A DNA stretch of 39,113 nucleotides from a virus. The position numbers and the translations under genes are program-made. The notes beneath the pieces are model-generated. The model was not told where the DNA came from. It did not search any database and saw only the letters and a program-made list of their open reading frames with translations. The stretch is taken from the IMG/VR virus record IMGVR_UViG_3300010046_000002, positions 1 through 39,113 of that record, one strand, 5' to 3'. Positions 1 to 28,219 of the stretch are shown piece after piece. Position 1 is the first letter of the stretch, and each line of letters starts with the position of its first letter.

Positions 1-123
1 CGATTGCCGCTTACTCGCAGACTTCCGGCCACCGCCCGCCCGTTGCTGCCGTCCCGGGCCGGGCAAGATCCGCCGCAGATCCGCCGCCTCGCTCGGCCCC
101 CGCCCCGCAAACGTCCGCTCCAG
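1..123. repeat. Terminal redundancy copy A (circular-assembly overlap)
   Basis: Identical base for base to 38991..39113. It lies inside the integrase C-terminal coding sequence, so it is a circularisation overlap rather than a biological terminal repeat. Confidence 0.9.
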
Positions 124-2778: not shown

Positions 2779-3417
2779 ATGAATCCTGCGCCTTGTACAC
2801 GCTGTCAGCAACCGGTGGAACCGGTCCAGCGGCGCGGTCGGCCACGCGCTTACGCCGATTTGTGTCGGCCGTGTGTGCGGGTCGCATACCGCCAATCGGA
2901 TAGAGGGCGCGCAAAAGCGCGTGCACGGGATCGACGCTGGCGCCAAACGGATGCGGGCCGCGTGTCGACGACAGCCTCGCTTAAGCGCTACCGGCAATCG
3001 GACAGAGGTCGTGCCGTGATCGCTGCTTACCAAGGGGCCCCCCAAGCACGCTACCGTCAGACGGAAAAGGGGCGGGTTAGTGCGACAAAGGCCGATGTCC
3101 TACGCCGGACCCGCAAAGCGAAGGCGATTGTTCTTGAGTCCATCGACCGCCGGATCATTTTTGTCCTCGACGGCGGGATTTGCCACCTCTGCAACCTCCC
3201 GGTTGATCCGGAGACGTTTCACGTTGACCACGTGATCCCACTCGCGGTCGAACCAATCCATGCAGCATTTAACTGCGCGGTTGCGCATCCCACATGCAAT
3301 GTCCGGAAGTGGAGGCGGCTTATGGTGCTATCCCCGACCGCACGGCTCCGCTGGCAGGCGCGCCGTCCCGAGCACTTGGCGTTACTCGACCAACACCTCA
3401 CGCGGCTCGCCGCATAG
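2779..3417 (+). CDS. HNH endonuclease
   Basis: CHLCNLPVDPETFHVDHVIPLA...NCAVAHPTCNVRK is an H-N-H motif. The N-terminal half carries repeated (Y/W)RQ(S/T)(D/E).GR units. Confidence 0.8.
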   Translation: MNPAPCTRCQQPVEPVQRRGRPRAYADLCRPCVRVAYRQSDRGRAKARARDRRWRQTDAGRVSTTASLKRYRQSDRGRAVIAAYQGAPQARYRQTEKGRVSATKADVLRRTRKAKAIVLESIDRRIIFVLDGGICHLCNLPVDPETFHVDHVIPLAVEPIHAAFNCAVAHPTCNVRKWRRLMVLSPTARLRWQARRPEHLALLDQHLTRLAA

Positions 3418-3424
3418 GAAAGTG

Positions 3425-4624
3425 ATGAGCACAACAACCGCAACACGTCGGAAGCGCAGTGCGGCGCGTGATACAGTGCCGCAAGAGAGGTCCGTTATGG
3501 AACCCGAAACCATTCCCGCCGAGGCCACCGCCGCCGCGCCCGTCACTGCGCCCGCCCTCGTGCCCGACGTCGTCGCCGAGGGGCTTGTGCTCGGCAATCC
3601 CGAGGCGCTCGCCGCGCAGCTCGAGAGTTTTAGCCGCGCGCGGGGCCTCTTCGTCGATTGGCTCTTTAACCGGCTCGTCGCCGGCATCGACTACATGGTG
3701 ATCCATCGCAAGGTCGGGCCGCGCAATGCGAAGACCCCGTGCCCGAATGCGACGACCGCGACGGGGGCGACGTGCCCGACGTGCGGCGGCAAAGCCACCT
3801 TGTGCAAGCCGGGCTCGGAGAAAATCTGCGGCCTCTTGCAGTTGCGTCCCCGCTTCCGGCGCGATGTCGAAACGTGGGAGATGCTCGGCGGCGAGGCCGG
3901 GCTCATGACGCTCGTGTGCGAGCTCGTCACGACCGCCGGCGTCGTCGTCGCCGAGGGCCGCGGCGCACGCCACCGTGACCAGGATTTCGGGGACACAAAC
4001 AAAGCGATCAAAATGTGCCAAAAGAGCGCGCAAACGGACGCCGTGCTGCGCTGCGCCGGGCTCTCGGAGATCTTCACGCAAGACTTAGAGGACATGCCCA
4101 CTTTCATGCGGGAGACCGACCCCGATAACGCGCAACCCTTCGAGGCGCCGCGCCGGCAAGCTGAAGCCACGCCGGCACCCGCCACGGGCGCGCAAGGCGA
4201 GCTCGACCTAGCCGACCAGCTCCGCCGCTCGGTCGCCGAGGCCGCCGCCCGCAAGGCCGCTGCGCCCGTGCGCCCGGCCCCGGCAACGCCGACGCCTCCA
4301 GCAGGCGACGAGCCGCCGCCGAGCGACGCGCTCTCGAAACCCCGCATCGGCCGCTTGATGGCGCTCCTGCATGAGGCCGTCGAGAAGCAAGGCGTGCCCG
4401 ACGATTCCCACGAGCAGATTTTCGACCGCTCGCTGGATTGGCTCGCGGGCTGGGTCGCCACGACGCAGGGCCGCAGCAAGGTCACGCACTGCAGTTACAA
4501 GCAATACGACGCGCTGTGCGCGCAAATCCCGGTCGCCGTCGAGGCCGCGCTCGCCGGCGAGCGGCGGCCCGCCCCGCGGCTCGTGCGCCGCACGTACGCC
4601 GCCCCGCGCCGACCGCTGCGGTAA
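3425..4624 (+). CDS. Single-strand annealing protein, Rad52/Sak/Erf-superfamily-like, with a Cys4 insertion and a long Pro/Ala-rich C-terminal region
   Basis: ATG 3425 follows AGGAAAG. The core ...EGRGARHRDQDFGDTNKAIKMCQKSAQTDAVLRCAGLSEIF resembles the K.A.TDA..R..G motif of Rad52-like annealases. Insertion: CPNATTATGATCPTCGGKATLC. It sits next to an exonuclease. Confidence 0.55.
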   Translation: MSTTTATRRKRSAARDTVPQERSVMEPETIPAEATAAAPVTAPALVPDVVAEGLVLGNPEALAAQLESFSRARGLFVDWLFNRLVAGIDYMVIHRKVGPRNAKTPCPNATTATGATCPTCGGKATLCKPGSEKICGLLQLRPRFRRDVETWEMLGGEAGLMTLVCELVTTAGVVVAEGRGARHRDQDFGDTNKAIKMCQKSAQTDAVLRCAGLSEIFTQDLEDMPTFMRETDPDNAQPFEAPRRQAEATPAPATGAQGELDLADQLRRSVAEAAARKAAAPVRPAPATPTPPAGDEPPPSDALSKPRIGRLMALLHEAVEKQGVPDDSHEQIFDRSLDWLAGWVATTQGRSKVTHCSYKQYDALCAQIPVAVEAALAGERRPAPRLVRRTYAAPRRPLR

Positions 4625-6378: not shown

Positions 6379-6573
6379 TCACGTCCAGTACACGAGCTGC
6401 CCGGCCTTGAGTTTGCGCACGATGATGCGCGCCATGACGAGGTCCATCGGGCGGCGGAGCGGGTCGGCATCCGGAGCCGCTTGCCGGGCGCGATCCGCCT
6501 CGACCAAGAGCGTGGCGGCCTCCTCGTCGGGGGCCGCAAGAATCCGGTCAAGCAAATTAGCCGAGCTGGTCAT
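6379..6573 (-). CDS. Hypothetical protein (64 aa)
   Basis: MTSSANLLDRILAAPDEEAATLLVEADRARQ...; the start overlaps the last 17 nt of the terminase ATPase ORF. Confidence 0.45.
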   Translation of the reverse strand: MTSSANLLDRILAAPDEEAATLLVEADRARQAAPDADPLRRPMDLVMARIIVRKLKAGQLVYWT

Positions 6574-7276
6574 GCACGAGGTCCTTAAAAAACCCCGGGC
6601 CGGCGCTCGACACCGCCGTCAACCGCCCGCCGCCCTCGATGGTCGGCCGCAACGCCACCCACGTCTCGAACGCATGATCCCAGAACGCCACCTCGTCGGC
6701 CAAGACCGACGTGAACGTGTGCTGCCGCGCTTGCTCCTCGCCCTCGCCGAGCGCCACGATCTCCGACCCGTTCGGGAAGCGGAGAAAGCCAATCGAGTAC
6801 TCGACCTCGCAGACCGGAAACGTCGCCGGCAAGTGCTCGTGAATGAACTTCGCGCGCCGCACGAGCTCCGCCGACCCCTCCGTCTCCGTTTTCCCTAGTT
6901 TCCGGGCCATGAACGCGACCTTGCTATTCCCGCAAAACCGCGCAAGCCAGTAATTCACCGCCACGAAGAGCCAGGTGACGACCATGCGCCGGGACTTCGC
7001 AACCGCGAGTAACGGTTGCTCCTGCCAGCGCCGCACCAGGAGCTCCGCATAGGCTTGACTCGGGTAGCGCCGCACGCGCCCCGTCACCTCGTCCCGCGTC
7101 CACACGCAATCCCGCACAAACGCCCACGGATCCCCGTCCCGGCCGTAGGTCGCGAGCGTTTTCCGTTGCTCGAGCAGGAGCCGCGCCGCGGCGCGCATGG
7201 CGAGGGGATGGTCGGGCCCCAAGACCCGGCCCGCGCCGGCCCCCGGCTCAGGCATCGGGCCCGTCGGCGGCGTCAC
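6557..7276 (-). CDS. terL-N: Terminase large subunit, ATPase domain only
   Basis: YPSQAYAELLVRRWQEQPLLAVAKSRRMVVTW (deviant Walker A), FTSVLADEVAFW (Walker B), RLTAVSSAGPGFF (C-motif), then ...KDLVHDQLG stop. GTG 7276 overlaps the upstream TGA (GTGA); the alternative start is ATG 7255. Confidence 0.8.
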   Translation of the reverse strand: MTPPTGPMPEPGAGAGRVLGPDHPLAMRAAARLLLEQRKTLATYGRDGDPWAFVRDCVWTRDEVTGRVRRYPSQAYAELLVRRWQEQPLLAVAKSRRMVVTWLFVAVNYWLARFCGNSKVAFMARKLGKTETEGSAELVRRAKFIHEHLPATFPVCEVEYSIGFLRFPNGSEIVALGEGEEQARQHTFTSVLADEVAFWDHAFETWVALRPTIEGGGRLTAVSSAGPGFFKDLVHDQLG

Positions 7277-7689
7277 CACGCATACTCGAGCACGTAGGCA
7301 AACCGCTCGAGGCAGCCCGCCACCGCCGCCCAATCGGCCTCGGAGAGCCGCAGCCCGACCGGCCGCTGGAAGTCGTCGCTATAGCCCGGCCGGAAGAGGA
7401 TCCGCTCGCGCGGGAGCGTCGTTAAGACCGGCAACGCGTCGTCCGGCATGCGCGAGACCGCCTCCAGGCCGACCCGCATGGTGCGCGGCCGCGCGGCGGC
7501 CGTGCTCCGCAGCATCGAGGCCGGATCCTCCGTCACCATGACCGCCGCAGGATAGTCCCCGCCCGCATGGTGCTGCGCAAAGACCGCCAGCCACACCCCG
7601 CCGTCACGGATCGGCCCGCCGCCGCGTGCCCGCCGCGGCCCGGGTGCCCGGCGCCGGGCCGGCCGATCGGCGCCGCGCCGCCGCGTCAT
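7273..7689 (-). CDS. Hypothetical protein (138 aa) between terS and the terL ATPase half
   Basis: MTRRRGADRP...VWLAVFAQHHAGGDYPAAVMVTEDPASML...RLSEADWAAVAGCLERFAYVLEYAW; ATGA overlap with terS and GTGA overlap with terL-N. Confidence 0.5.
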   Translation of the reverse strand: MTRRRGADRPARRRAPGPRRARGGGPIRDGGVWLAVFAQHHAGGDYPAAVMVTEDPASMLRSTAAARPRTMRVGLEAVSRMPDDALPVLTTLPRERILFRPGYSDDFQRPVGLRLSEADWAAVAGCLERFAYVLEYAW

Positions 7690-8366
7690 CGCCCCTCCTC
7701 CGGCCCCGGCAACAGCCCGACCACGCCCGCCAAGCGCTCGGGCCACGCCCCCGTCGCACTGAACGCTTCGAGCTCCTGGTCCGACAACTGCTCGAGCACG
7801 TGCAAGTGGAGATGCGCCTTGCGCTCCACCTTGTCCCCGCTCGTGGTCAACAACAGATCCGCCGCCCGGATCGCATCCGCGTCCCGCTTCGCCCGCCCCC
7901 GGCGCTCCCCGCTCGCCCGATCCTTCACGCCCCCCGCCAGCTCCGCCACATGCTCCATCACCGCCGGCGCCGCCGCCTTCGCCGTCGCCAGCACGCCGTA
8001 CTCGCCCCGCAACACCCGCTCGAGCTGCGCCTCGCGCACCAGCGCCACAATGCGCACCACCGCGGGATGCTTGAGCGCCTTCATCGCCGCGTGCTGCGTC
8101 GTGTACCCGAGCGCCCGCGCAATCGCCGCCGTGTCGTAGCCGCCCAAATGCAGCATTCCGACCGACCAGAGCCGCGCCGGCGTCGAGCGCCGCAACGCCT
8201 CGAGCGTCATGCTTGAACAGCCCTCCAGCCACGCCCGCGCGGCGGCCTTGCGCTCGGCATGCGACCGCTTGGCCGCGGCCTGCAGCACCGCGACCCGCTC
8301 GGCCAACACCTCCGGCGACGGGCCCGGATGCGCCCGCACGCCCGGCCCCGTCCGTCCCGATGGCAT
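7686..8366 (-). CDS. terS: Terminase small subunit-like HTH protein
   Basis: Lies directly upstream of the ATPase half. HTH: MLHLGGYDTAAIARALGYTTQHAAMKALKHPAV; helical C-terminal region. Start is ATG 8366 or 8384. The N-terminal extension in track ORF 7686..8606 looks non-coding. Confidence 0.5.
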   Translation of the reverse strand: MPSGRTGPGVRAHPGPSPEVLAERVAVLQAAAKRSHAERKAAARAWLEGCSSMTLEALRRSTPARLWSVGMLHLGGYDTAAIARALGYTTQHAAMKALKHPAVVRIVALVREAQLERVLRGEYGVLATAKAAAPAVMEHVAELAGGVKDRASGERRGRAKRDADAIRAADLLLTTSGDKVERKAHLHLHVLEQLSDQELEAFSATGAWPERLAGVVGLLPGPEEGR

Positions 8367-8384
8367 CGCGCTCCGGCCTAGCAT

Positions 8385-8738
8385 AGGCCCGGCGGTGCAA
8401 GCCAGCGGCCCCCGGCCGTCGGGATCCCACTTGCCCGCGGCCCCGTCCCCGGCCCGGGCGGTCCGTCCCGCCTCGGCCCGGTCCGGGCTCGCTGCCCCCC
8501 ACGCCACCGCGCTCCGCGCGCTGGCTCCACGCTGCGCGTGGCGGCCCCCATGGGCTCCCATGGGCCAGCCAGCTGGCTTGCTAGCATGCCAGCCTGGCCT
8601 GGCCAACCAGCAGGCTAGGCTGCTAGCAGGCTAGGCTGACAGTGGCGCGCCCTGGGGGCTGCCGGGGGGTGCGAGCGCGCGGGAGCGAGCGGCCCTCCCC
8701 TGCGGCTGGACCCATCCCGGCGGGGATTGGCTACCAAC
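8385..8738. repeat. Non-coding, CTAG-rich cluster of palindromes and direct repeats upstream of terS (candidate pac/cos or late-leader region)
   Basis: Tandem AGCAGGCTAGGCTG at 8609-8622 and 8625-8638. CCCATGGG twice (8547-8554, 8557-8564). Palindromes GCCAGCTGGC (8568-8577) and CCACGC-tgc-GCGTGG (8527-8541). Seven CTAG within 8378-8812. No convincing ORF. Confidence 0.55.
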
Positions 8739-9382: not shown

Positions 9383-9427
9383 GGGACGGCGGTGTAGCAG
9401 AGATCGGGCCGGACCGCAGCGGCCCTC

Positions 9428-9468
9428 TTGACGGCGGCGGGGGTCGGGTGCGAGACGGCCCGTCCCGG
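9428..9468 (+). promoter_or_regulatory. Conserved promoter-like element, copy 1 of 4
   Basis: TTGACGgcggcgggggtcgggtgcgaGACGGCCCGTCCCGG; it ends at the fibre GTG start (9468). Confidence 0.5.
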
Positions 9469-11447
9469 TGGCATGGTACTATACCGAGCCGCGGCGGCGG
9501 CGGCTGCCGCTCGAGCCGGTGCCGGGGACGGCGGCGGGGGGTGGTGGCGGGCCCCCGACGGGGCCGGCGGGGGGGGATCTCCAGGGGAGCTACCCGAATC
9601 CCACCCTCGCGCCGGGGGCGGTGCAGCGGTCGGAGACGGCGCCCGATCTCTGGCTCTCCCCCATCCCGAGCGATCCGGGGAATGTGGGGCAGGTGCTGAC
9701 GGTCGTCTCCGGGCCGAGTCTCGTCTGGCAGACGCCGGCGGTGACGGAGGGGCTCTCAGGGGTCTGGAACTACAAGGCGACGGGGGGCATGACCGACCCG
9801 GGCAGCGGGAATATCGCGCCCGATGTCGTCGGGGCCCCGACGCTCGACCGCTTCTCGACCTACACCGTCGGGGGGACCGATGCCCGCAACATCTTTCTGA
9901 CGACCCAGGTCGGGGATGTCTTGGTGCTCCAGCAGAAGACCGATTCGACCAAGTGGGCGAAACAGCAGGTGAACGCGCCGGTGGTCGACCACGGGACGTG
10001 GTTTGAGGTGCCGATCACGACGCTGGCGGGCGGCACCGGCGGCGCGCTCGCGAACAACGCCGACGTCGCCGTGCAGTTCCAGCGCGGCACGGGGTCGGCG
10101 GGCCCAAGCGGGCCGGCAGGGGGGGACCTCACCGGCACGTATCCTAATCCGACGATCGGGGCCTTGAAGGTGACTGATGCCAAGGTGAACGACGTCGGGG
10201 CGGGGAAACTGACGGGGACGATTGCGCAGGCCCGTTTCCCGACCGCCCCCAGCGGGCTTCTCACGGCCAATCTGAATGATGCGCAGGTGACCGACGCCAA
10301 GATCGTGGGCATGGCGTATGGGAAGCTGACGGGGGCACCAACGAGTCTGCCCCCGAGCGGGAGTGCCGGGGGGGACTTGGCGGGCAGCTACCCGAGTCCG
10401 ACGATTGGGCTCTTGAAGGTGGTGACGGGCTACCTCGCCGATCTGTCGGTGACCAATGCGAAGATTAATGATGTGGCGTGGGGCAAGGTGACCGGGGCGC
10501 CCTCGAGCTTCCCGCCGTCGGGGGCCGCGGGGGGCGATCTCACCGGGACGTATCCCAACCCGACGATTGGGCTCCTCAAGGTGACGACCGGGGCCTTGGC
10601 GGCGCTCGCGGTGACCGATGCCAAGGTGAACGACGTCGCGTATACGAAGGTGACGGGGCATCCCACGAGCTACCCCCCGAGCGGGGCGGCGTCTGGCGAC
10701 TTGAGTGGCAGCTATCCGGGTCCCACGGTCGCCAGGCTGAATGGGTTGGCGCTCACCGTGGGTGATACCTATTACGTCAATGCCACTCCGGCCTTGGCAC
10801 GGCTCCCAGCGAACGCGAGTGCCACCAACCAGTACCTCCGCAGCGTCTCCGGGGGCGTGCCCGCGTGGCAGCAAGTCGCCTACGGGGATCTCTCCGGCAC
10901 GCCAGCCGCGTTGCCCCCGAGTGGCACGGCGGGTGGGGACCTGACGGGGACCTATCCCAACCCGACCATCGGCGCGAATGCGGTCGGAAACGCAGAGATT
11001 TCCGACGTGGCATGGACGAAGGTGACGGGTGCGCCGGGGAGTTTCCCGCCGAGCGGGGCGGCGAGCGGCGACTTGAGCGGCACGTATCCTGCGCCGACGG
11101 TGGCAAAGCTGAACGGCGCCGCGGTCGGCACGACGACCCCGCTGGCCCGCGGCGACATCCTGGTTGCCGACGGCACGCCGGCCTTGAAGCGACTGGCGCT
11201 CGGGGCGGCGAGCCAGGTGCTGCAGTCGAACGGGACCGATGTCGTCTGGGGGGCGTCGCTTGGTGGGCCGCCGTCGGGCAGCGCGGGGGGGTCGTTAGCG
11301 GGGACGTATCCCAACCCGACGCTTGCCACGACCGGGGTGACGGCGGGGACCTACGGCGATGCGCGGACCATTCCGACCGTTACCGTCACGGCCGAGGGGC
11401 GGATTTCCGGTGTGACGACGGTGACCTTGATTGCGCAGTGGAAGTGA
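9468..11447 (+). CDS. Repeat-rich tail-fibre-like protein (659 aa), stand-alone copy outside the tail module
   Basis: Eight copies of (P)PSG.(A/S)GG(D/S)L.G(T/S)YP.PT(I/V/L), interleaved with TDAK(V/I)NDVA..KVTGAP units. The same motif is present in the fibres at 25899 and 26826. Confidence 0.75.
9560..11330 (+). repeat. Coding repeat array ([12 protein letters not shown] modules, 8 irregularly spaced copies)
   Basis: The motif DNA starts near 9569, 10119, 10368, 10529, 10690, 10930, 11062 and 11285. It carries G7-G8 runs at 9569-9576, 10119-10125, 10368-10374 and 11285-11291. Confidence 0.8.
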
Positions 11448-11486
11448 GCCGGCGCCCGCGCTGTCAACCGGGCGTGGCAGGGGCAC

Positions 11487-11527
11487 TTGACGAGCCGGGG
11501 GTCTGAATGGCACACGGCCCGTCCCGG
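11487..11527 (+). promoter_or_regulatory. Conserved promoter-like element, copy 2 of 4
   Basis: TTGACGagccgggggtctgaatggCACACGGCCCGTCCCGG. It is followed by a 29-codon uORF (11536..11625) whose TGA overlaps the OMP ATG at 11625. Confidence 0.5.
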
Positions 11528-11621
11528 CGAGGCCAATGGCGAGGCCCCCTGAGCCGGTCGGCCACGATCATCGCACCGCCCCCGGTGTGTCCCTTGAGGC
11601 CGGCCGGCTCCTCCCCCCGGG

Positions 11622-12842
11622 GTGATGGGGCATGGGCGCTGGGCCCTGGTGCTGCTGGTGCTTGCCGGGCCGGCGGCCGCGCGCACGCTTGAGGGTGTCC
11701 TTGGGGATGCGCAGGAACGCGTCGGGCTGCGGCCGGCGGCGGCGTTTTCCCACTTTGCGTCCCATCTGGCCGTGGTGACGACCATGCCGAGCCTCACGTC
11801 GGCCTCGAGCGCGGCGCTCTCGGGCGGGGCGGCCATCGACGCGACGATGTCCATGCTCGGGCCGATCTTCTTGGATCATCCGGAGACCCTTGGGGCCGGG
11901 GTGACGAATCTGAATGTCGTGTCGCAACGGGCATTTAGCGATGCGACGCTTTTCGGGCAGCCCTTCAATCAGCTCGGCTCCTTCTTTCCCGTCTTGGCCG
12001 AGCGCACCCCGACCGGCGACCCGAATGCGCCCGCCTTTTTGGGGGTGCGGCTGCGCTACAGCCTGGATCTTCATGCCTGGGCGACGGCGATTGCGTTCAG
12101 CCACGGCCTCACCGACGACCTTGACCTGAGCGTCGTTCTCCCGATTGTCTCGACCCGGCTCGACCTGGCGGTCCGGGCCCGGATCGTCAAGCAGACCGGG
12201 CCGAATGGCGGGGCGTTTGTGGCCACCAATGGCCCGACGCTCGGGGGCACGCTCGAGCCGGTCAGCTCGACCGGCATCGGGGACGTGGCGCTGCGGGCCA
12301 AGTACCGGCTCCCGCTCCCAAAACCGTGGGGGCTCTCCCTCTCGCTCGAGGGCCAGTTTCCGACCGGCGACCCCTTTGAGCTCCATGGGACCGGGGCCTA
12401 CTGGATCACGCCCGGGCTGACCGTCTCGCGGATTCTCTGGAATGGGAAGGCCGAGGTCGAGGCGCACGCAGACCTCCACTTTAACATCAGCCGGGCGCTC
12501 CAATCCCAAGCCCTCTATGGGCTGTCGGGGTCCGTGGTGCTCTGGCCGAAGCGCCTCGCCGCCATCGTCGAGTTTCTCGGGACGAGCCAGCTGGACAGCG
12601 CCTTTGCGCCCCATGGGACGGACGTGTTGGTCGTGACGCCGGGGGGTGGCGTCGTGGCCGACCCGCTGCTTGGGATCGGCTGGTCGGGCCGGCTCGACCA
12701 GTGGAATCTCTCCTTTGGGCTCCGGGCGCGGCTCTGGAAGCGGGTGATGCTGTTTGCGAATGGGGTCTATGCGCTCAATCCCGACGTCGGCGTGCGGCCG
12801 GTCGGGGTGATCCCGACCTTCGGGCTCGGAGCAACCTTCTAA
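11622..12842 (+). CDS. Secreted outer-membrane beta-barrel protein (MetA-pathway/transporter-like family guess)
   Basis: Signal peptide MMGHGRWALVLLVLAGPAAA/RT; alternating beta-strand pattern; STGIGDVALRAKYRL motif; C-terminal ...TFGLGATF ending in Phe, as in OMPs. Confidence 0.6.
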   Translation: MMGHGRWALVLLVLAGPAAARTLEGVLGDAQERVGLRPAAAFSHFASHLAVVTTMPSLTSASSAALSGGAAIDATMSMLGPIFLDHPETLGAGVTNLNVVSQRAFSDATLFGQPFNQLGSFFPVLAERTPTGDPNAPAFLGVRLRYSLDLHAWATAIAFSHGLTDDLDLSVVLPIVSTRLDLAVRARIVKQTGPNGGAFVATNGPTLGGTLEPVSSTGIGDVALRAKYRLPLPKPWGLSLSLEGQFPTGDPFELHGTGAYWITPGLTVSRILWNGKAEVEAHADLHFNISRALQSQALYGLSGSVVLWPKRLAAIVEFLGTSQLDSAFAPHGTDVLVVTPGGGVVADPLLGIGWSGRLDQWNLSFGLRARLWKRVMLFANGVYALNPDVGVRPVGVIPTFGLGATF

Positions 12843-14047
<1,205 letters not shown>

Positions 14048-14060
14048 GGAGTATACGCCC

Positions 14061-14192
14061 ATGACGACCGAGCGCCGCCCCGAGGACGAGACGCCGCCAC
14101 CCGCGCCCCCCGAGGACGAGGAGGAGACGAAGAAGCTCGAGGATCCGGAGCCCGAGGGACCCCCCGAGGACGAGAAAGCGACGGCGGACTAG
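14061..14192 (+). CDS. Small acidic protein (43 aa)
   Basis: AAGGAG lies 9 nt upstream of ATG 14061; MTTERRPEDETPPPAPPEDEEETKKLEDPEPEGPPEDEKATAD. Confidence 0.4.
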   Translation: MTTERRPEDETPPPAPPEDEEETKKLEDPEPEGPPEDEKATAD

Positions 14193-15062
14193 ATGCCGTT
14201 TCTCGGCGCTCGCGGGGCCGCGCCCGACCCGCGGGGTACCGCCGCACAGCCGATGCCGGGCGTGACGGAGTGGCGCTGCCCGCGCAACGGCGTCCACGTC
14301 GTCGAGGTCCACTACACTGCCGACCCGGCCAAGCGCGACCCGGCGTGGAAGCGCGAAGCCATGCGCGGCATGCCGCCGCGTGGCTGGCAACGCGAGATGG
14401 AAATCGCGTTCGACCTGGCCGGCGGTGAGCCCGTCTTGCCGGAATACGTCCCCGCCGAAATGCGCCGCCCCTTTCCGGTCAATGCCTCCGCACGCCTCTT
14501 GCGGGGCTGGGATTTTGGTCAGGTGTGTCCGGTGACCGTCTTTGCGCAACTCGATGTCCATGGGCGGCTCGGCTTTGTCGCCGAGCTGGTCTTGGAGCAC
14601 GCCAACCTGACCGCGCAAATCGAGGCGACGAAAGCCATGACGATTGAGCTGGTTGGCCCGGGCGCCAACTGCTTTGACGCGGGCGACCCCGAGGCGCTGC
14701 ACGAGATGGAGCTCGGGTCGATTCGTGCGGTCCTCTTGAAGCATGGGATCATCTTGCAGACCTTCGCCCGCTCGAGCGACACGTCCTACAACAACCTCCG
14801 CGACCGCCTCTTGCGCCGCGTGCGCATCCCGGGCGAGGACGTCCCATCGCCGGCGCTCTTGGTCGACCCCCGGTGCCCGATTCTCCACTCGGCGTTCTCG
14901 GGTGGCTTCGCGCGGCATCAGAAGACCGGGAAACCCATGCCGACGCATCCCTACAAGGACGTCGTCGACGCCGCCCGCTACTTGCATGACAACCTGCAGG
15001 GCTCAAGTTCAGACTGGATGCAGAAGCTCCAGCGCATCGCACGGGCGGATTGCGCATGGTGA
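14193..15062 (+). CDS. terL-C: Terminase large subunit, nuclease (RNase H-like) domain only
   Basis: Begins at the inter-domain linker ...GVHVVEVHYTADPAKRDPAWKREAMRGMPPRGWQREMEIAF. Catalytic Asp motifs: LLRGWDFGQ, NCFDAGDPEA, HPYKDVVDAARYLHDN. Confidence 0.85.
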   Translation: MPFLGARGAAPDPRGTAAQPMPGVTEWRCPRNGVHVVEVHYTADPAKRDPAWKREAMRGMPPRGWQREMEIAFDLAGGEPVLPEYVPAEMRRPFPVNASARLLRGWDFGQVCPVTVFAQLDVHGRLGFVAELVLEHANLTAQIEATKAMTIELVGPGANCFDAGDPEALHEMELGSIRAVLLKHGIILQTFARSSDTSYNNLRDRLLRRVRIPGEDVPSPALLVDPRCPILHSAFSGGFARHQKTGKPMPTHPYKDVVDAARYLHDNLQGSSSDWMQKLQRIARADCAW

Positions 15063-15769
15063 GACAGATCGTCGCGTTTAGCGGCGGCAAAGATTCCACC
15101 GCCATGGCGCTCCGGCTCCACGAGCTTGGGGAATCCTTCGCGTTGCTCTTCACCCCGACCGGCGACGAGCTGCCCGAGCTCCGCGAGCATATCGCGCGCA
15201 TGGTGGCGCGCATCGGATGCGAGCTGATTGTGCCTCCAAACCGCTCGCTCTACGAGTGGATCGCCACCTATCGGGCGCTGCCCAACTTCCGCATGCGGTG
15301 GTGTACGCGGCAAATCAAGATTGAGCCGTGCATCGCGTATCTGCTTGCGCATCCCGGGAGCACGTTGCTTGTCGGGCTTCGCGCGGATGAGGAGGCGCGA
15401 CTCGGTCTCTACGGCGCGTACGCGACGTATCGCTATCCGCTGCGGGAATGGGGCTGGCGGATGCGCGACGTCCGCCGCTATCTCGCGGCCCACGGCGTCG
15501 AGGTGCCGCGTCGCACCGATTGTGCGCTCTGTTACGACCAGCGCTTGAGCGAGTGGTATCGCCTCTGGAAAGCGCATCCGGAGGCCTACGCACGCGGTGA
15601 GGCCCTTGAGGCGGAGACGGGCCACACGTTCCGCAGCGGGCAGCGCGATCAGTGGCCGACCGATCTTGCGGGGTTGCGCGCGGCGTTCGAGGCCGGTCGC
15701 CGGCCGCTGGGCGTCGGGGACGACGAGACGTTACCGCTGCCGCTCCGCTGCCGCGTCTGCTCACTCTAG
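15056..15769 (+). CDS. PAPS reductase / ATP-pyrophosphatase family protein
   Basis: IVAFSGGKDSTAMAL P-loop (SGGKDS), ...MRWCTRQIKIEP..., C-terminal CALC...CRVC cysteines. Start ATG 15056 or GTG 15059, overlapping the terL-C TGA. Confidence 0.75.
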   Translation: MVRQIVAFSGGKDSTAMALRLHELGESFALLFTPTGDELPELREHIARMVARIGCELIVPPNRSLYEWIATYRALPNFRMRWCTRQIKIEPCIAYLLAHPGSTLLVGLRADEEARLGLYGAYATYRYPLREWGWRMRDVRRYLAAHGVEVPRRTDCALCYDQRLSEWYRLWKAHPEAYARGEALEAETGHTFRSGQRDQWPTDLAGLRAAFEAGRRPLGVGDDETLPLPLRCRVCSL

Positions 15770-15779
15770 CGACGCGGCA

Positions 15780-15820
15780 TTGACGACCCCGGGGGCCGGC
15801 GGGTACACGGGCCGCCCCGG
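15780..15820 (+). promoter_or_regulatory. Conserved promoter-like element, copy 3 of 4
   Basis: TTGACGaccccgggggccggcgggTACACGGGCCGCCCCGG, immediately followed by the portal ATG at 15821. Confidence 0.5.
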
Positions 15821-18316
15821 ATGCCACGACGCGCCGCGGGCGGGGCTGCCGCCGAAACCCTCTCGCCGGCACGCGGCGAGGCGCCGAAGAATCTTGCGCT
15901 TGACCCGCTGATTATCGAGCGGGTCAAGAACGAGTTGGTGCCGCTCGTCCGTCGCACCCGGCAGGAGCGTAACGGGGTCCTCCGCGAGCGCTGGCTCCGC
16001 TACTACCGCATCTGGAGCGTGCGCCACGACCGCCAAGGCTACGTCGGCCGGTCAAACACCTACTTTCCCGTTGGCCGGCGCTGGATTGAGCAGTGGGTCA
16101 CGCGGCTCAAGCGCGACCTCTTCCCCGACCAGGACTGGTTTGCGTGCCGGGCACTGCGGGAAGATTTTGAGGCCCGCGTGCCCGCCAAGCAGGCATTGGC
16201 GGCCTACTGGATGCGCCGCCACATGCGGCTCCGCAAGCACGCGCTACCGTGGCTCCGCCAGCTCGTCATGTACGGCACGTCGCCGGTGCGGAATGTCTGG
16301 CGCGCGGTGGAGCACGAGCAGACGGTCCTCCGCGATGTCCTTGACGACGACGGCCAGCCATCGGGAAAAACGATTGAGCAAGTGGAAAAGGTGGCGGACT
16401 TCCTCGGCCCGACATTTGAGCCCGTCGACCTTTTTGCGTTCTACGTCTGGCCGCCGACCGCCGCCGGGCTCGAGGACTGCACACTCGTCTTCGAGGACCG
16501 CTGCGTGCCGCGGAGCCGGGTCTATGCCTTGGCCACGAAGCCGCTCGACCCCTCCAACCCGAAAGGCGGCAATGTCTACGAGGGGGTGGACCAGCTGGTC
16601 GCGCTCTACGACCAGGCGATGCAAAACCGCACGGGCGGCCAAGCGGGTCGCAACCCCGAGAAGTTTGACGCGCTCGCCATTCGCTTGGCCGATAAGGGGT
16701 TTACTGCCCCGCTCGACTTCAACGTGCCCGCGGCGCTCCGCCCGCTCGATCTCACCGAATGCATGTGGACGGTCGACTTGGAGGACGACGAGCCGGCGCG
16801 GTACTTGGTCACGCTTGGCGCCGACGAGGTCCCCTTGCGCGTGCAGCGTCGGCCCTTCTGGCACGGCGGCACGCAATGGCTCGTCGGCCGCTTTCAGCAG
16901 ATTCCCGAGGAATTCTACGGCCGTGGCTTGTGCGAGTTGTTTGACTATCTCCAATACTTCGTCAACGACCTCGGCAACCAGTCGGGTGACGCGTTTGTCT
17001 GGTCGACGAACCCGATTGCCGTTGTTGACATTGGTGCCGTTCAGGACCCGACCAGTCTGCGCATGGCGCCGGGGGCCAAGTGGCTTGCCAATCCCGCCGG
17101 CGTGCAGTTCACGACCCCGCCGCAAGGGGCCGCGACGGCCGGCTTTACCGCCGTCCAAGGCTACGTCGGGTTGGCCGACACCTTGGTCGCGCCGACCCCC
17201 GCACGGCCGATGGCGCCCAATCAGCAGACCGGCGCGCAGGATTCCGCGGGCTTGGCGGCGCAGCTCGCCGATAGCGCCGTCGACATCCGGGCCGTGATCG
17301 AGAGCCTCGAGGATGAGGTGATGGTGCCGCTCCTCGAGCGCTCCGACATCCTGACGCAGCAGTGCCTCGACCGGGACATCATCTTAAAGGTGGCGGGCAA
17401 GGACGGGATGGAGCTCGTCGAGCACCCGATCACGGTCGCGGACTTGGTCGGCGAGTACGAGTGGGAATGGCTCGGCACGACCACGGCGCAGAATCAACAA
17501 GTCAGAGCCTCGCAAATGATCCAAGGCGTGGCCCTCATGAGCCAGATTCCCCCCGACCAGCTGGCCGCGCAGGGCGTCACCATCGACTGGCCCTACATCC
17601 TCCGGACCTTCTGGTCGATCGGCTTGGGGCTCCCCGATGCCGACCGCGTCGTTAAGACCGGAAAGGACGTTCAGCCGAATGACTGGCGCTGGGAGAACGC
17701 GCTCGCCCGCGTGAACCGTGCTGACGAGCTCCGCGTGTCCCCGCAAGACGACCACACGGCGCACATCCAGGGCCACCAGCACGCGCTCGAGTCAGGCTCG
17801 CTCAGCGAGGATGCCGTCGTCAGTCTGACCACGCACATCCATCATCATATTGGTTTACTGGTTGCCGCCGAGGCGCAAGCACTCGCGCAATCCATGGCGA
17901 CACTTGCCGGGCCTCCCGGCATGCCCGGCCCGCCGCCGGGAGCACCTCCGCCCGGTATCGGCCCCGGCCTCCCCCCCGGTGGGCCACCGATGCCGCCTCC
18001 CCCGGGGATGCTCCCGCCGGCCGGGCCACCACCTCCCATGGGCCCACCGCCCATGCCGCCGCCGCTCCCGGTCGGCCCGGGAGGGCCACCGCCCCCTCCG
18101 TATATCGCGGGTGTGCCGAACGCGGGAATCAATGAGCTCGCGTCTCGGCTCCGCGGCCCCGACTTCGGCGCCCCGCGGCCGCATAGCGGCTCCCGCGACC
18201 GGGCCAAGGCGTTGATGGGCATTCGACCCCCGGCCCCGCTCGGCCAAGGCCGGATCGGCACGACGAGGAACCTCAGCGATCTCTTCAGGCGGCTACCCCG
18301 TTTCCCGCGAGGATAA
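15821..18316 (+). CDS. Portal protein with a long Pro/Gly-rich C-terminal extension
   Basis: Size and position after terminase. N-terminus ...LDPLIIERVKNELVPLVRRTRQERN...WLRYYRIW. Core ...FWHGGTQWLVGRFQQIPEEFYGRGLCELFDYLQYFVNDLGNQSGDAF... Tail GPPGMPGPPPGAPPPGIGPGLPPGGPPMPPPPGMLPPAGPPPPMGPPPMPPPLPVGPGGPPPPP. Confidence 0.75.
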   Translation: MPRRAAGGAAAETLSPARGEAPKNLALDPLIIERVKNELVPLVRRTRQERNGVLRERWLRYYRIWSVRHDRQGYVGRSNTYFPVGRRWIEQWVTRLKRDLFPDQDWFACRALREDFEARVPAKQALAAYWMRRHMRLRKHALPWLRQLVMYGTSPVRNVWRAVEHEQTVLRDVLDDDGQPSGKTIEQVEKVADFLGPTFEPVDLFAFYVWPPTAAGLEDCTLVFEDRCVPRSRVYALATKPLDPSNPKGGNVYEGVDQLVALYDQAMQNRTGGQAGRNPEKFDALAIRLADKGFTAPLDFNVPAALRPLDLTECMWTVDLEDDEPARYLVTLGADEVPLRVQRRPFWHGGTQWLVGRFQQIPEEFYGRGLCELFDYLQYFVNDLGNQSGDAFVWSTNPIAVVDIGAVQDPTSLRMAPGAKWLANPAGVQFTTPPQGAATAGFTAVQGYVGLADTLVAPTPARPMAPNQQTGAQDSAGLAAQLADSAVDIRAVIESLEDEVMVPLLERSDILTQQCLDRDIILKVAGKDGMELVEHPITVADLVGEYEWEWLGTTTAQNQQVRASQMIQGVALMSQIPPDQLAAQGVTIDWPYILRTFWSIGLGLPDADRVVKTGKDVQPNDWRWENALARVNRADELRVSPQDDHTAHIQGHQHALESGSLSEDAVVSLTTHIHHHIGLLVAAEAQALAQSMATLAGPPGMPGPPPGAPPPGIGPGLPPGGPPMPPPPGMLPPAGPPPPMGPPPMPPPLPVGPGGPPPPPYIAGVPNAGINELASRLRGPDFGAPRPHSGSRDRAKALMGIRPPAPLGQGRIGTTRNLSDLFRRLPRFPRG

Positions 18317-18370
18317 GTATCGGAAATGATGGGCGCCTCGATTTTACCGACAGCCGGAAAGGGATGTGAG

Positions 18371-18574
18371 ATGGCGGGAAAAGAAAAGTGGATAGCTGGC
18401 GCGATATCCCGGCCCGGGGCTTTCAAAAAGAAGGCGCAGGCGGCGGGTAAGTCGACGGGCGCGTTTGCGCGCTCGGTCTTGAAGGAAGGGTCGAAAGCCT
18501 CGACGCGCACGAAGAAGCAGGCGGCATTGGCACAAACCCTCTCGAAACTGCGCTCGGGAAAAGCTCGCTTTTGA
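18371..18574 (+). CDS. Small basic protein (67 aa)
   Basis: MAGKEKWIAGAISRPGAFKKKAQAAGKSTGAFARSVLKEGSKASTRTKKQAALAQTLSKLRSGKARF; internal ATG of track ORF 18326..18574. Confidence 0.5.
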   Translation: MAGKEKWIAGAISRPGAFKKKAQAAGKSTGAFARSVLKEGSKASTRTKKQAALAQTLSKLRSGKARF

Positions 18575-18580
18575 TGCGCG

Positions 18581-19138
18581 ATGATTGTCAAACGCGGCAA
18601 GCGCTACGTCTTGAAGAGCAAGGAGTCGGGTCGCACACTCGGCGTGCATCCGAGCCGGGGGGCCGCCGAGCGGCAGGAGACGGCAATCAACATGTCGAAA
18701 GCACGGGCCGCGGGGCACAAGCTCCCGCCGCCGCCGGATGAGAGGGGCGAAACCATGCGGAAGATTCGCAGCGGCAAGGCCAAGTTCTTGGTGCCGCTCG
18801 TGCTCCTTGCCGCCACCGCGGCCCACGCGGCGACCAAGACGTGCCCGAGCGGCACGCTCGCGCCCGCGCCGATCACGGCGACGGGCCCGACGACTGACAT
18901 CATCATCGCACGCGCGGCGCCCGCGCTGGTCATGCAAGCCTCGGGCACGGGCACCGCCACGGTGGTGATGGAAATGTCGTGCGACGGCACCAATTGGGCG
19001 CAGGTGACTAACTCGAGCATGAGCGTGCCGCCGAGCCAGGTCGTGTCCGTCTTGCAGCCGACGTGCAGCTATCGGGCCAATGTGACGGCGTGCACGACGT
19101 GCTCGATTACGGTGGTCTATGCGTGCTCCGGTGCGTAG
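18581..19138 (+). CDS. Bipartite protein: basic N-terminal module, an internal signal-peptide/TM segment, and a Cys-containing extracytoplasmic domain
   Basis: MIVKRGKRYVLKSKESGRTLGVHPSRGAAERQETAINMSKARAAGH... followed in frame by MRKIRSGKAKFLVPLVLLAATAAHA/ATKTCPSG... (possible internal start at ATG 18755, preceded by GAGAGGGG). Confidence 0.5.
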   Translation: MIVKRGKRYVLKSKESGRTLGVHPSRGAAERQETAINMSKARAAGHKLPPPPDERGETMRKIRSGKAKFLVPLVLLAATAAHAATKTCPSGTLAPAPITATGPTTDIIIARAAPALVMQASGTGTATVVMEMSCDGTNWAQVTNSSMSVPPSQVVSVLQPTCSYRANVTACTTCSITVVYACSGA

Positions 19139-19490
19139 CCTCGTCGTGGTCGCGCTCCTCCTCGTCGCGCGCGTGGCATGCGGGCAGGCGGGGAGTGGCT
19201 GCGGGCCGACAAGTCATGGATGCGGTCCGGGGGGCCGCGGCTCGTGCGGGGTCGGAAAACACGGGTGCGGCCCGGGCGGTGCGGCCACCCCGGTCAAGCG
19301 CTCGGGAGGGGGATACCATGCCCTTGCTGCAGCTGATTGTGATCCTCATCGTCATCGGCCTGATTCTCTACTTGGTGGAGACGCTCTTGCCGCTCGACCC
19401 CGCGATCAAGCAGGTGATCCGGGTCGTGATCGTGATTGCCGTGATTCTCTGGTTGCTCTCCCTTGTCGGCTTGATCCCGAATCGCATTAG
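19119..19490 (+). CDS. Possible small secreted Gly/Cys-rich protein; 3' end uncertain
   Basis: MRAPVRSLVVVALLLVARVAC/GQAGSGCGPTSHGCGPGGRGSCGVGKHGCGPGG... GC3 is high only up to ~19317. After that the frame overlaps the better-supported membrane ORF and looks non-coding. Confidence 0.25.
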   Translation: MRAPVRSLVVVALLLVARVACGQAGSGCGPTSHGCGPGGRGSCGVGKHGCGPGGAATPVKRSGGGYHALAAADCDPHRHRPDSLLGGDALAARPRDQAGDPGRDRDCRDSLVALPCRLDPESH

Positions 19491-19521
19491 CTTTCTCGGG
19501 CCGCGGCGATTCCTCACCTGA
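19318..19521 (+). CDS. Small two-TM membrane protein (67 aa)
   Basis: GGGAGGGGGA lies 6 nt upstream of the ATG; MPLLQLIVILIVIGLILYLVETLLPLDPAIKQVIRVVIVIAVILWLLSLVGLIPNR... Confidence 0.6.
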   Translation: MPLLQLIVILIVIGLILYLVETLLPLDPAIKQVIRVVIVIAVILWLLSLVGLIPNRISFLGPRRFLT

Positions 19522-19531
19522 GCGCTGGGGC

Positions 19532-19574
19532 TTGACAACCCCGGGGGGTTAACCGCTACACGGCCCGCCCCGAC
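19532..19574 (+). promoter_or_regulatory. Conserved promoter-like element, copy 4 of 4
   Basis: TTGACAaccccggggggttaaccgcTACACGGCCCGCCCCGAC, immediately followed by ATG 19575. Confidence 0.5.
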
Positions 19575-19952
19575 ATGGCACGCAAACGCGGCGCCGTCGG
19601 GAACGGCAAGGCAAAAGCCCTCGTGCCGCCGATGAAGGGCGCCAAGACGCCGCCCCCGGGACCGCCGCCGCGTCCCGTGCGTGGCCGCGTCGCGATTGCA
19701 CTTCCCGTGCTCCGCGTCGCACCCACCCGGGGCCGCGGCACCGCACCCCCGCCGGGGCCGGGGCGTCTCCCACCTCCGCCCACGGCCGGCCCACCAGCGC
19801 CGCCACGCGCGGTCGGGCCACCTCCACCGGCGCGGCGGGTGCCCGTTCCCCCTCCGCCACCCCCGCCACCCTCCAGCACGTCGCCCGTCATGCGGCAGCG
19901 CGGCGCCCGCCAAACGATGGCGGCCATGCGCCGCGGGCAGGTCGCCTTCTAA
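19575..19952 (+). CDS. Basic, extremely proline-rich protein (125 aa)
   Basis: Sits right after element copy 4. TAATG coupling to the next gene. Contains PPPGPPPRP, PPPGPGRLPPPPTAGPPAPP, VPVPPPPPPPPSS. Confidence 0.5.
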   Translation: MARKRGAVGNGKAKALVPPMKGAKTPPPGPPPRPVRGRVAIALPVLRVAPTRGRGTAPPPGPGRLPPPPTAGPPAPPRAVGPPPPARRVPVPPPPPPPPSSTSPVMRQRGARQTMAAMRRGQVAF

Positions 19953-21054: not shown

Positions 21055-22380
21055 ATGCCCGGCAGTACCTATAACTACAGTGATCCGGGGCTCTCGACCT
21101 CGACGACACTCGTCAACGACCTTGCGCCACTCTGGCTGCAGGACGAGCTCCTAGCCATCGCGCAAAAGTTGACGGTGTTTCAGGACATTGGCGACACGCC
21201 GAATATGCCTGACGGCGAGGGTAAGACGTATTCGGCGCAGCGCTACGAGCGGCTGCCGCTCCCGGGTGCGCCGCTCACTGAGGGGATCACGCCGGATAGC
21301 ACCGCGTTGGTGGTCAACAAGGTGACGGCGATCCTCGAGCAATGGGGCATGGTCGTCTCCTTGACCGACGTCGCGCTGATGACGACCAAGCACCCGGCGC
21401 TGACGGCGGCAACTGACCGGCTCGGTAACGCGTCGGCGGAGCTCCAAGACCGCGAGATCCAAAAGGTGTTGATGGGCTCGGGGGTCGTGGTCTTCCCAGG
21501 CGGCAAGACGTCGCGGACGACGCTCGCCGCCGGTGACGTGCCGACCACGGATTTCGTCTCGGGCATCGTCGCGACGCTCCGCCAACTCGGCGCGCCGTCC
21601 TTCCCAGGCGCGATGTACGCGGGGGTACTGGACCCCTACACCGAGCAAGATCTCGCCAAAGACTCGACCTTCGTCTCGTCGCACCAGTACGCCGAGACCA
21701 CGGCGCTGATGAATGCGGAGGTTGGCCGCTGGCGCGGCGTGCGCTGGAAGCGCTCGAACCTGCTCCCGATCATTTCGTTGCTCGCGACCGGCGCCGGCGG
21801 CGTGAGCGCTGCGGCCATCACGTCGCTGCCGACGGGGGATACGGGATTCACGGCCGGCTCGACGGTCAAGGCCACGGCGGCACTCGCCGATACGATAACC
21901 GGGCTCGATAGCAAGCAGATTGCAACCGCTACCGTGACCAACGCCTCGGCCTATGATGTACAGTTCACGATTTCCGCGACCGCGCCTGAGGGCCGCTATA
22001 ACCTCTACGTGTCGGCCGAGGGTGGCACCATTCCGTTCTATCAGGGCATCGTGTCAAAGCCCGTCGGGGCGCAGCTCTTGGTGAACGTCGCCAAGGTGAG
22101 CGGTGGTGTCTCCATTGGCTTCTCGTCAACCGGCGCGCCCGCCGGCGCCGATCCGCCCTCGTCCGCGTTCAACGTGCATGTCGGCTACATCTTCGGGAAA
22201 AGCGCCTTTGCGGTCCCGGCACTCGGCGCCCGCACCGTCACGACCTTGACACCCGCCACCGCGAGCGATTCCGACCCCTTGAAGCAGCGCCGCAAGGCCG
22301 GATTCAAGTTTATGACCAAGACGTGCATTCTGAATACGGACTTCTTCCGGCGTTTCGAGTGCTCGAGCGCCTTCGGGTGA
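21055..22380 (+). CDS. Major capsid protein (HK97 fold, N4-gp56-like) with an inserted domain
   Basis: AGGAGGA SD. ...GEGKTYSAQRYERLPLPGAPLTEGITPDSTALVVNKVTAILEQWGMVVSLTDVALMT...GNASAELQDREIQKVLM... ~120-aa insertion SLLATGAGGVS...VSGGVSIGF. Confidence 0.85.
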   Translation: MPGSTYNYSDPGLSTSTTLVNDLAPLWLQDELLAIAQKLTVFQDIGDTPNMPDGEGKTYSAQRYERLPLPGAPLTEGITPDSTALVVNKVTAILEQWGMVVSLTDVALMTTKHPALTAATDRLGNASAELQDREIQKVLMGSGVVVFPGGKTSRTTLAAGDVPTTDFVSGIVATLRQLGAPSFPGAMYAGVLDPYTEQDLAKDSTFVSSHQYAETTALMNAEVGRWRGVRWKRSNLLPIISLLATGAGGVSAAAITSLPTGDTGFTAGSTVKATAALADTITGLDSKQIATATVTNASAYDVQFTISATAPEGRYNLYVSAEGGTIPFYQGIVSKPVGAQLLVNVAKVSGGVSIGFSSTGAPAGADPPSSAFNVHVGYIFGKSAFAVPALGARTVTTLTPATASDSDPLKQRRKAGFKFMTKTCILNTDFFRRFECSSAFG

Positions 22381-28016: not shown

Positions 28017-28219
28017 TGTCGCACGTGATTGAGGCCAAGATCCAGCAGCATCGCGCCGAGCTTACGCGGCAACGCGGCCGCTTGGCCGAGCTCCGCCGCG
28101 GCGTCGCCGAGGCGCGCGCCATGTGCGCCCGGCTCGAGGGTGCCGTGCTCGCGCTCGAGGAGCTCAGCGCCGCCCCGGCCACCGACACGGATGGGGCCGG
28201 TGAGGACGCCACGCCATGA
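28016..28219 (+). CDS. Small helical protein with an acidic tail (67 aa)
   Basis: MSHVIEAKIQQHRAELTRQRGRLAELRRGVAEARAMCARLEGAVLALEELSAAP...; the ATG overlaps the fibre TGA, and its own TGA overlaps the GNAT-1 ATG. Confidence 0.5.
   Translation: MSHVIEAKIQQHRAELTRQRGRLAELRRGVAEARAMCARLEGAVLALEELSAAPATDTDGAGEDATP

Follow-up and report, generated by a model that had tools for sequence, protein, structure and literature searches.

The window analysed here, the whole 39,113-nt stretch formed by IMG/VR virus record IMGVR_UViG_3300010046_000002, belongs to a temperate podovirus-like phage of an uncultured soil clade, and carries a 41-bp promoter-like element in exactly four full copies, all on the + strand. 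A first-pass annotation had placed these copies at 9428-9468, 11487-11527, 15780-15820 and 19532-19574, and their sequences are exactly as it quoted them. Every copy is oriented toward its downstream gene, and only the half of the genome that encodes virion and packaging proteins is occupied. Our analyses support, with moderate confidence, the interpretation of this element as a promoter class heading the virion-morphogenesis (late) operons of the clade.

Copy 1 (9428-9467) lies in the divergent region between a leftward operon and a fibre-like gene. Its -35 hexamer TTGACG (9428-9433) is followed by a spacer containing GGGGG and by the block GCGAGACGGCCCGTCCCG (9450-9467), directly after which comes the GTG at 9468 of the fibre-like gene (DUF5907 repeat, 659 aa; 9468-11447, + strand), without a Shine-Dalgarno sequence (SD). 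Copy 2 (11487-11526) comprises TTGACG at 11487-11492 and the block GGCACACGGCCCGTCCCG at 11509-11526, and is separated by a 9-nt leader, GCGAGGCCA, with GAGG four nt upstream of the start, from the ATG at 11536 of a 29-codon open reading frame (ORF; 11536-11625, + strand). As had been noted, the TGA of this small ORF overlaps by one base the ATG of the next gene (11625-12842, + strand; 406 aa), whose product had been labelled an OMP; the label found no support, the protein having a signal-peptide-like N-terminus and no match in Pfam or PHROG. In copy 3 (15780-15819), TTGACG (15780-15785) and the block GGTACACGGGCCGCCCCG (15802-15819) are followed by a single G and then by the ATG of the SU10-like portal gene (15821-18316, + strand). 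Copy 4 (19532-19572) has TTGACA (19532-19537), a spacer one nt longer, the block GCTACACGGCCCGCCCCG (19555-19572) and the dinucleotide AC before the ATG of a gene for a 125-aa basic proline-rich protein beginning MARKRG (19575-19952, + strand), whose start ATGGCACGCAA is conserved in the clade. The latter gene heads a run that includes the capsid gene (21055-22380, + strand) and tail genes. According to a gene call based on frame-specific G+C content at third codon positions and on codon usage, the copies sit in the sole gaps between rightward genes from 9.4 to 19.6 kb; copies 2, 3 and 4 start 39, 10 and 10 nt past the preceding stop codons, and no further copy was found between copy 4 and about position 35000.

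The consensus of the element consists of TTGACR, an 18-19-bp spacer with a tract of five to eight G, the sequence G[CG][TC]A[CG]ACGG and a C-rich 9-mer ending in CCCG; the distance from TTGAC to ACGG is fixed, and spacer and flanks are variable. The -35 hexamers (TTGACG in three copies, TTGACA in one) are those of a sigma70-family promoter. At the -10 position, 18, 18, 18 and 19 bp further on, copies 1 to 4 have GAGACG, CACACG, TACACG and TACACG, all of which retain the A at -11 and carry G in place of T-7, so that none conforms to TAnnnT, in agreement with the earlier description of a sigma70-like -35 box lacking such a -10. A simple sigma70 scan of the window reported none of the four sites. 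Just 5' of the -35 (19520-19531 and the equivalent positions in relatives) the sequence is nearly always GGGG(G)C or CCC(C)TC, which could pair with the C-run or with the spacer G-run, leaving TTGACA in the loop, and has no U-tract after it; this flank might serve the upstream operon as a terminator-like stop, or might form a DNA structure.

A chance origin of the motif was excluded by two kinds of control. The pattern TTGAC-N14-22-ACACGG occurs three times in the window against 0.14 expected, and none of 100 dinucleotide shuffles reached three matches; copy 1, which has AGACGG, falls outside this exact-pattern count and is recovered once a single mismatch is tolerated. Both strands were also scanned with a weight matrix of two blocks, TTGACR and the 18 nt running from GC to CCCG, which was derived solely from 56 copies of relatives. 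It scored copy 4 at 37.7, copy 3 at 37.2, copy 2 at 34.2 and copy 1 at 29.6 bits, against 2.1 bits for the next-best site in the window, or -0.3 bits once one-base offsets of the four are excluded, and a maximum of 9.7 bits in 30 first-order Markov control sequences. A truncated mirror copy had also been proposed, corresponding to the leftward half-copy GCTACACCGCCGTCCC (9383-9398, - strand) that adjoins the ATG at 9382 of a 79-aa ORF heading the leftward operon before the terminase region. This assignment is weak: the half-copy is degenerate, has no TTGAC at the correct distance and reaches 6.6 bits on the -10 block alone, which is not above background and is tied with several sites inside coding sequences.

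The conservation of the element was assessed in 69 related IMG/VR loci (designated L followed by a number) recovered by a portal-based search, with 63-99% portal identity. About 60 distinct copies were found in these soil viral contigs, and in the 60-copy alignment TTGAC and A.ACGG..CC..CCC are invariant or above 90%, and the spacer (except for the G5-8 run) and the flanks are free. The two blocks are tied to each other at a fixed distance. Searching relatives with the downstream core A[CG]ACGG[CG]CCG[CT]CC alone gave 48 matches, 46 of which had TTGAC at the expected distance; with the weaker anchor A.ACGGSSC, TTGAC occurred at offsets 24, 25 and 26 in 3, 57 and 15 cases and elsewhere in the upstream 45 nt only twice, that is, 75 of the 77 occurrences lie 24-26 nt from ACGG. 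A 22-kb relative, L017, has four copies before the same four genes as the window. Orthologues of copy 1 occur in L017, L062 and L019, in which the N-terminus VAWYYTE of the fibre-like protein is also kept, and those of copy 2 in L017, L027 and L062; small ORFs of relatives begin at the position equivalent to 11536 and vary in sequence. Of the four positions, that of copy 4, ahead of the MARKRG gene, is conserved most widely. In L020 and L044 a complete opposite-strand copy precedes a leftward gene placed similarly to that starting at 9382, and no motif copies were found in L073-L076, which are contigs of the integrase and early region. A pattern scan of all IMG/VR contigs returned 38 stretches, nearly all from this clade. 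The matches in L083 and L101, two unrelated 47-kb contigs with no proteins in common with the window, were treated as chance, that in L083 having no qualifying ORF downstream. In the literature we found no description of the motif or of the clade.

More distant relatives (portal identity about 63-76%) help to separate the general from the lineage-specific features of the element. Their copy before the MARKRG gene reads TTGACT-N16-(GC)TA(A/G)GAC-G(G/C)-N4-CCCCG-(AG)-ATG, with a 16-bp, AT-richer spacer and no G-tract. The constant features are thus the -35 hexamer, a -10-like element initiated by TA and preceded by GC, a short C-rich run and a nearby start codon, and the G-tract with the 18-19-bp spacer is specific to the lineage of the window. 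Of the consensus proposed in the first-pass annotation, the CCGGGGG box is confined to this lineage; the more divergent relatives lack it but retain the other parts of the motif.

The relationship between the element and the start codons provides an indication of where transcription may begin. In the window, the starts at GTG 9468, ATG 15821 and ATG 19575 lie 0, 1 and 2 nt after CCCG, with no SD at copies 1, 3 and 4; the earlier observation of this abutment was correct, and these starts are conserved in relatives. An ORF lies downstream of 72 distinct copies. In 39 of these the start codon follows CCCG within 0-3 nt, always without an SD; the gap is 5-19 nt in 31 and about 40 nt in the other two, and the longer leaders mostly carry GGAG, GAGG or AAGG. 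Conservation stops exactly at CCCG, where the indels between orthologues begin. This bimodal distribution fits a transcription start at the end of the block or just before it, which would yield very short-leadered or leaderless mRNAs; both the very short leaders without an SD and the short ones with an SD would then allow translation. The abutment itself is a frequent state of the motif and neither obligatory nor intrinsic to it, because many relatives have 5-19-nt leaders with an SD at the same promoter. Most internal genes of the window are preceded by an SD (GGAGG, for example), which indicates that the host uses SD-led initiation. Leaderless mRNAs are known from lambda cI transcribed from PRM and from many actinobacterial genes. 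More than half of the copies described here resemble them in having a start codon 0-3 nt from the block end and no SD, but the geometry suggests a leader of a few nt rather than a 5' AUG, and orthologous promoters use SD-containing leaders.

In relatives with long portal leaders, single-sequence folds predict a hairpin whose 5' arm is formed by the 6-7 nt that terminate the block, followed by AG, and whose 3' arm reaches to within 0-2 nt of the ATG. One variant has C-G as its outer pair (CCCCGAG/CTCGGGG) and another G-C (GCCCGAG/CTCGGGC); since this pair covaries, the end of the block should be present in the RNA. Such hairpin leaders, of 11-19 nt and with an SD-like AAGG or AGGA in the loop, occur in L003, L013, L017, L020, L022, L027, L055, L060 and L062, and the window has lost this leader. 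Another observation, made at window starts 9468, 11536, 15821, 19575 and 9382 (- strand) and in relatives, is that genes of unrelated families following the motif mostly start with ATGGCNCG, coding for Met-Ala-Arg (MARKRG, MARRAAG, MARAHA, MARPP); this may reflect high-GC composition bias or a preference of SD-less initiation.

The early region of the same genome contains a promoter of a different kind. On the + strand, a canonical TTGACA (2277-2282) is separated by 17 nt from TAGTCT (2300-2305), with an ATG 8 nt after the -10, and its -35 is embedded in an inverted repeat, CCGATAGT (2262-2269)-N12-ACTATCGG (2282-2289). The hexamers, their spacing and the ATG are kept in L073, L074, L076 and L090, and the spacer sequence varies. 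This early promoter points antisense into a - strand ORF (2319-2759), an arrangement suggestive of a face-to-face lysis/lysogeny switch. Early transcription of the phage is thus probably carried out by an enzyme that recognises canonical -10 boxes with a 17-bp spacing. The virion-operon elements differ systematically from this promoter in having YA(C/G)ACG at 18-19 bp and a conserved C-rich block, and we infer from this difference that they form a distinct, separately regulated class.

Taken as late-operon promoters, the elements could operate as follows. A bacterial RNA polymerase holoenzyme would dock on the canonical -35 TTGACR and span a spacer of 18-19 bp, with a G5-8 tract in this lineage, to reach the atypical -10, (G/C)(T/C)A(C/G)ACG, in which the A at -11 is kept and the usual T-7 is G or C. 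Beyond it would lie a GC-rich discriminator and start block, GSCCSYCCCG, with transcription probably beginning inside the terminal C-run or at its end. This would give mRNA leaders of about 1-7 nt without an SD for the fibre, portal and MARKRG genes, and a leader of 9-14 nt with GAGG at copy 2. In view of the sub-optimal -10 and spacing, and of the canonical promoter used in the early region, the class probably stays silent as long as no factor, made by the phage or induced by infection, acts on the -10/discriminator block.

Several points weigh against this reading. The lack of T-7 combined with an 18-19-bp spacer makes the element a poor substrate for a housekeeping sigma factor, and the late timing is deduced only from the genes that the operons contain. 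Ordinary promoters do not usually have a conserved 9-mer behind the -10, and this one could be an operator. Promoters lying only 10 nt past stop codons imply read-through from the upstream operons, and the copies may be boosters rather than the sole promoters of their operons. Finally, a comparison of about 55 ORFs with Pfam and PHROGs yielded no phage sigma factor, RNA polymerase, WhiB, MerR or other activator, and searches of PDB sequences with the ORFs at 3260-4624, 7686-8606 and 37312-38202 revealed no polymerase, sigma factor or WhiB. The first-pass annotation had suggested a phage-specific middle/late promoter class with near-leaderless mRNAs, or else the binding site of an activator. 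A late promoter class of this kind, or an activator site, is the reading that the comparative evidence supports best; "phage-specific" claims more than the data offer, given that no phage factor was found and given the resemblance of the -35/-10 arrangement to a bacterial housekeeping consensus (see below). A more particular version holds that host RNA polymerase is re-targeted to the T-7-less -10, that is, to YA[C/G]ACGG with its C-rich discriminator and 18-19-bp G-tract spacer, by a small unrecognised phage protein or by a sigma factor whose divergence puts it beyond the reach of Pfam, with near-leaderless translation of the products; we regard this as rather unlikely.

One competing explanation is that the copies are ordinary constitutive promoters, read by the housekeeping sigma factor of a host whose consensus resembles the motif, with no phage factor or temporal class, and that the extra conservation results from common descent and selection for strength. 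The sigma73 housekeeping consensus of Caulobacter crescentus, TTGaCgS-N10-14-GCtANAWC (PMC13004042, PMC8144410), is the closest cellular consensus: the phage elements have a perfect TTGAC(G/A) -35, GC before the TA of the -10, A-11, a non-T last base and a fixed two-block spacing oriented toward the gene. Although this consensus may not be that of the host, copy 4 (TTGACAA...GCTACACG) fits its -10 8-mer at six of eight positions, with gaps of 15-16 nt in the window, and the divergent relatives (GCTAAGAC or GCTAGGAC) at seven of eight, with a 13-nt gap and 16-bp hexamer spacing. The failure to find a regulator among the ORFs scanned also fits this explanation. On the other hand, the 18-19-bp spacing of the window's lineage, with its G-tract, exceeds the 10-14-nt range of Caulobacter, and the additional C-rich block of 9-10 nt, conserved up to the start region, extends far past what sigma70 recognition needs. 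Furthermore, the same phages retain a TAGTCT -10 and a 17-bp spacer at their early promoter, the motif was not seen in unrelated viral contigs, strong constitutive expression of virion genes would be harmful in a lysogen, and the sole hint to the host points to Actinomycetota rather than Alphaproteobacteria. On balance, we consider ordinary promoters unlikely. The A.ACGG-SCCSYCCCG block might instead be a phage-repressor operator, stoperator-like or placed at the start site, which silences the virion operons in lysogens, TTGAC...TA being a plain promoter. In favour of this are its asymmetry, its single orientation, its overlap with the region from -10 to +1 and its presence at each operon head, in a temperate phage that encodes an integrase, a Cro/CI-like helix-turn-helix protein and two small ribbon-helix-helix-like proteins (1775-1948 and 35933-36124, the latter with a weak HicB match). 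Immunity specificities normally diverge fast, whereas the block is kept among relatives with portal identity down to 50-70%, and the operator-like repeat in the early switch region is of another, palindromic kind. L5-type stoperators are asymmetric 13-bp repressor sites dispersed by the dozen throughout the genome, unlike the four sites described here, each of which heads an operon outside the early region. An operator thus seems improbable as the main explanation.

Two further explanations do not rely on promoter function. The element could act in RNA, as a 5'-untranslated, processing or translation signal comparable to start-associated sequences, or by pairing of the complementary G-tract and C-run into a hairpin; its position against SD-less start codons would suit such a role. 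Single copies, however, fold no better than their shuffles (z from -1.5 to +0.7), RNAalifold found no consensus structure in the 60 copies, the G-tract:C-run helix shows no compensatory changes and is equalled in shuffles, and the divergent lineage keeps the C-run without the G-tract. Rfam gave no match at E<=1, the start codon lies anywhere from 0 to 19 nt away with two exceptions, and nothing at the RNA level would explain why TTGAC is invariant and its distance fixed, all of which makes this explanation extremely improbable. Alternatively, the main role might be that of a recombination or module-boundary sequence, as in the promoter-stem-loop cassettes of T4, with promoter activity secondary. 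Blocks of homology with relatives begin at the TTGAC of copy 3, at 15780 in five loci and at 15777-15779 in four more, and those at copy 4 start at 19522-19531, within 10 nt upstream of its TTGAC. Moreover, the gene immediately upstream of copy 3, encoding a PAPS-reductase domain (15056-15769), is an insertion with respect to most relatives (L001, L002, L004, L008, L013, L017 and L027); these have copy 3 directly after the homologue of 14193-15062. Breakpoints at intergenic promoters are nevertheless expected in mosaic phages anyway, and the fixed bipartite spacing, strict orientation and proximity to start codons are properties of promoters, so that we hold a primary role in recombination to be very unlikely.

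Three other candidates were set aside. An intrinsic terminator or structured RNA would be at odds with the absence of a conserved covarying helix and of a T-run after the element. Sigma54 promoters (GG-N10-GC, TGGCAC-N5-TTGC) were discarded: copy 2 contains TGGCAC but has GT at -12, copy 4 and other copies of the GCTACAC type have no GG at -24, and the transcription start would fall inside the ORFs. A MerR-type spacer operator, suggested by the long spacer and the palindrome CCCCGGGG, is not supported either, the palindrome being absent from many copies and no MerR-like protein having been found.

Conserved promoter motifs are common in phages, and the late-operon promoter class favoured here is of a familiar general kind. 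T7-like single-subunit RNA polymerases recognize promoters with a conserved block reaching up to the start site and repeated before late operons. The contiguous conserved block of about 18 nt, also repeated before late operons, recalls these promoters, but the motif also includes a bacterial -35 hexamer, held at a fixed distance, and no phage RNA polymerase domain was detected by Pfam or PHROGs in the ORFs scanned, the largest of which are the portal and the SLT-domain virion protein. The nearest analogue among phages is Mu, a temperate phage with four activator-dependent late promoters (PMC2582627), and the four similar elements heading late operons in the window parallel them in number and position. 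By analogy, host RNA polymerase might here too read promoters with one defective element in need of an activator. In Mu it is the -35 that is missing from promoters with a recognisable -10, whereas the present element combines a perfect -35 with an atypical -10, and neither a C/Mor-like activator nor a dyad binding site was identified. The start-associated sequences (SAS) of Cluster K mycobacteriophages are 13 bp long, contain the SD core AGGAG 3-7 bp before the start and occur in 11-19 copies in the non-structural half of the genome (PMC3203893). Together with the extended form (ESAS), they share with our motif a short, asymmetric, one-orientation layout within a few nt of start codons, cluster-wide conservation even before different genes, and a function that is only predicted. 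Unlike SAS, our motif is 41 bp long and promoter-shaped, has no SD core, and occurs in four copies before structural operons, at a distance from the start that varies among relatives.

The first 123 nt of the window (1-123) are identical to the last 123 nt (38991-39113), which shows that the genome, of about 38,990 bp, is complete and either circular or terminally redundant; its G+C content is 69%. A tyrosine integrase is encoded on the - strand (1-1230) by an ORF that crosses the circular junction to a TAG stop at 38988-38990. In addition to the Cro/CI-like protein, there are genes for an HNH endonuclease, an exonuclease, a RuvC-like resolvase and a replication initiator, and a terminase-like protein is encoded on the leftward strand (6557-7333). 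A long rightward block encodes the fibre-like protein, portal and capsid protein, together with a fibre bearing a Peptidase_S74 chaperone domain and the SLT-domain virion protein. No relative at the DNA level was found by megablast among phage records, and the homologues of the portal are all metagenomic. The C-terminal peptide of the portal, IRPPAPLGQGRIGTTRNLSDLFRRLPRFP (residues 801-829; 18221-18307), retains 70-76% identity in L070, L071 and L072, which are distant relatives, and the approximately 140 residues preceding it were unmatched in the searches of these three; the peptide may be a conserved interaction tail. Two pairs of neighbouring genes look paralogous: the fibre-like genes at 25899-26825 and 26826-28016, with a common N-terminal region of about 45-70 aa, and a GNAT acetyltransferase gene and its neighbour (28216-28833 and 28830-29345), which cross-match the same regions in L070 and L071.

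Indications of the host are scarce. L070 (DATIOK010000169.1, 1-17302) is a contig in a metagenome-assembled genome of Gaiellales (Actinomycetota) and a true relative, with tblastn identities of 70% for the portal, 72% for a tail-tube-like protein and 57% for the capsid; it carries the motif variant TTGACG-N18-CAGACGG-CCCCCCCC-AACA-ATG, and its motif variants lie near 4493 and at 7448. It offers the only, and weak, hint to the host, because the contig may be purely viral and only binned with that genome. Next to the integrase stop, 38909-38957 (- strand) resembles the 3' two-thirds of a tRNA-Arg(UCG), including the anticodon stem-loop TCAGG-CTTCGAA-CCTGA, the T arm and the 3' strand of the acceptor, and is likely the attP core; ARAGORN detected no complete tRNA there. 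Annotated tRNA-Arg genes match this fragment at only 79-87%, and it therefore names no host. No host genes were within reach on the two largest contigs, and the contigs found through the integrase have no obvious host flanks.

The motif provides a clade-wide marker of operon structure, delimiting four or five virion-gene transcription units, and predicts SD-less mRNAs with very short leaders for the portal, fibre and capsid-operon genes. Should the host housekeeping sigma factor read it, the motif would report the promoter consensus of the host lineage and could aid host assignment. As a 41-bp high-GC promoter, its atypical -10/discriminator block constitutes a handle for finding the late regulator, and the involvement of a new factor would add a mechanism of late-gene control. 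If host RNA polymerase is indeed re-targeted by a phage protein, this would represent a new mechanism of late transcription and sigma appropriation in an uncultured clade of soil phages.

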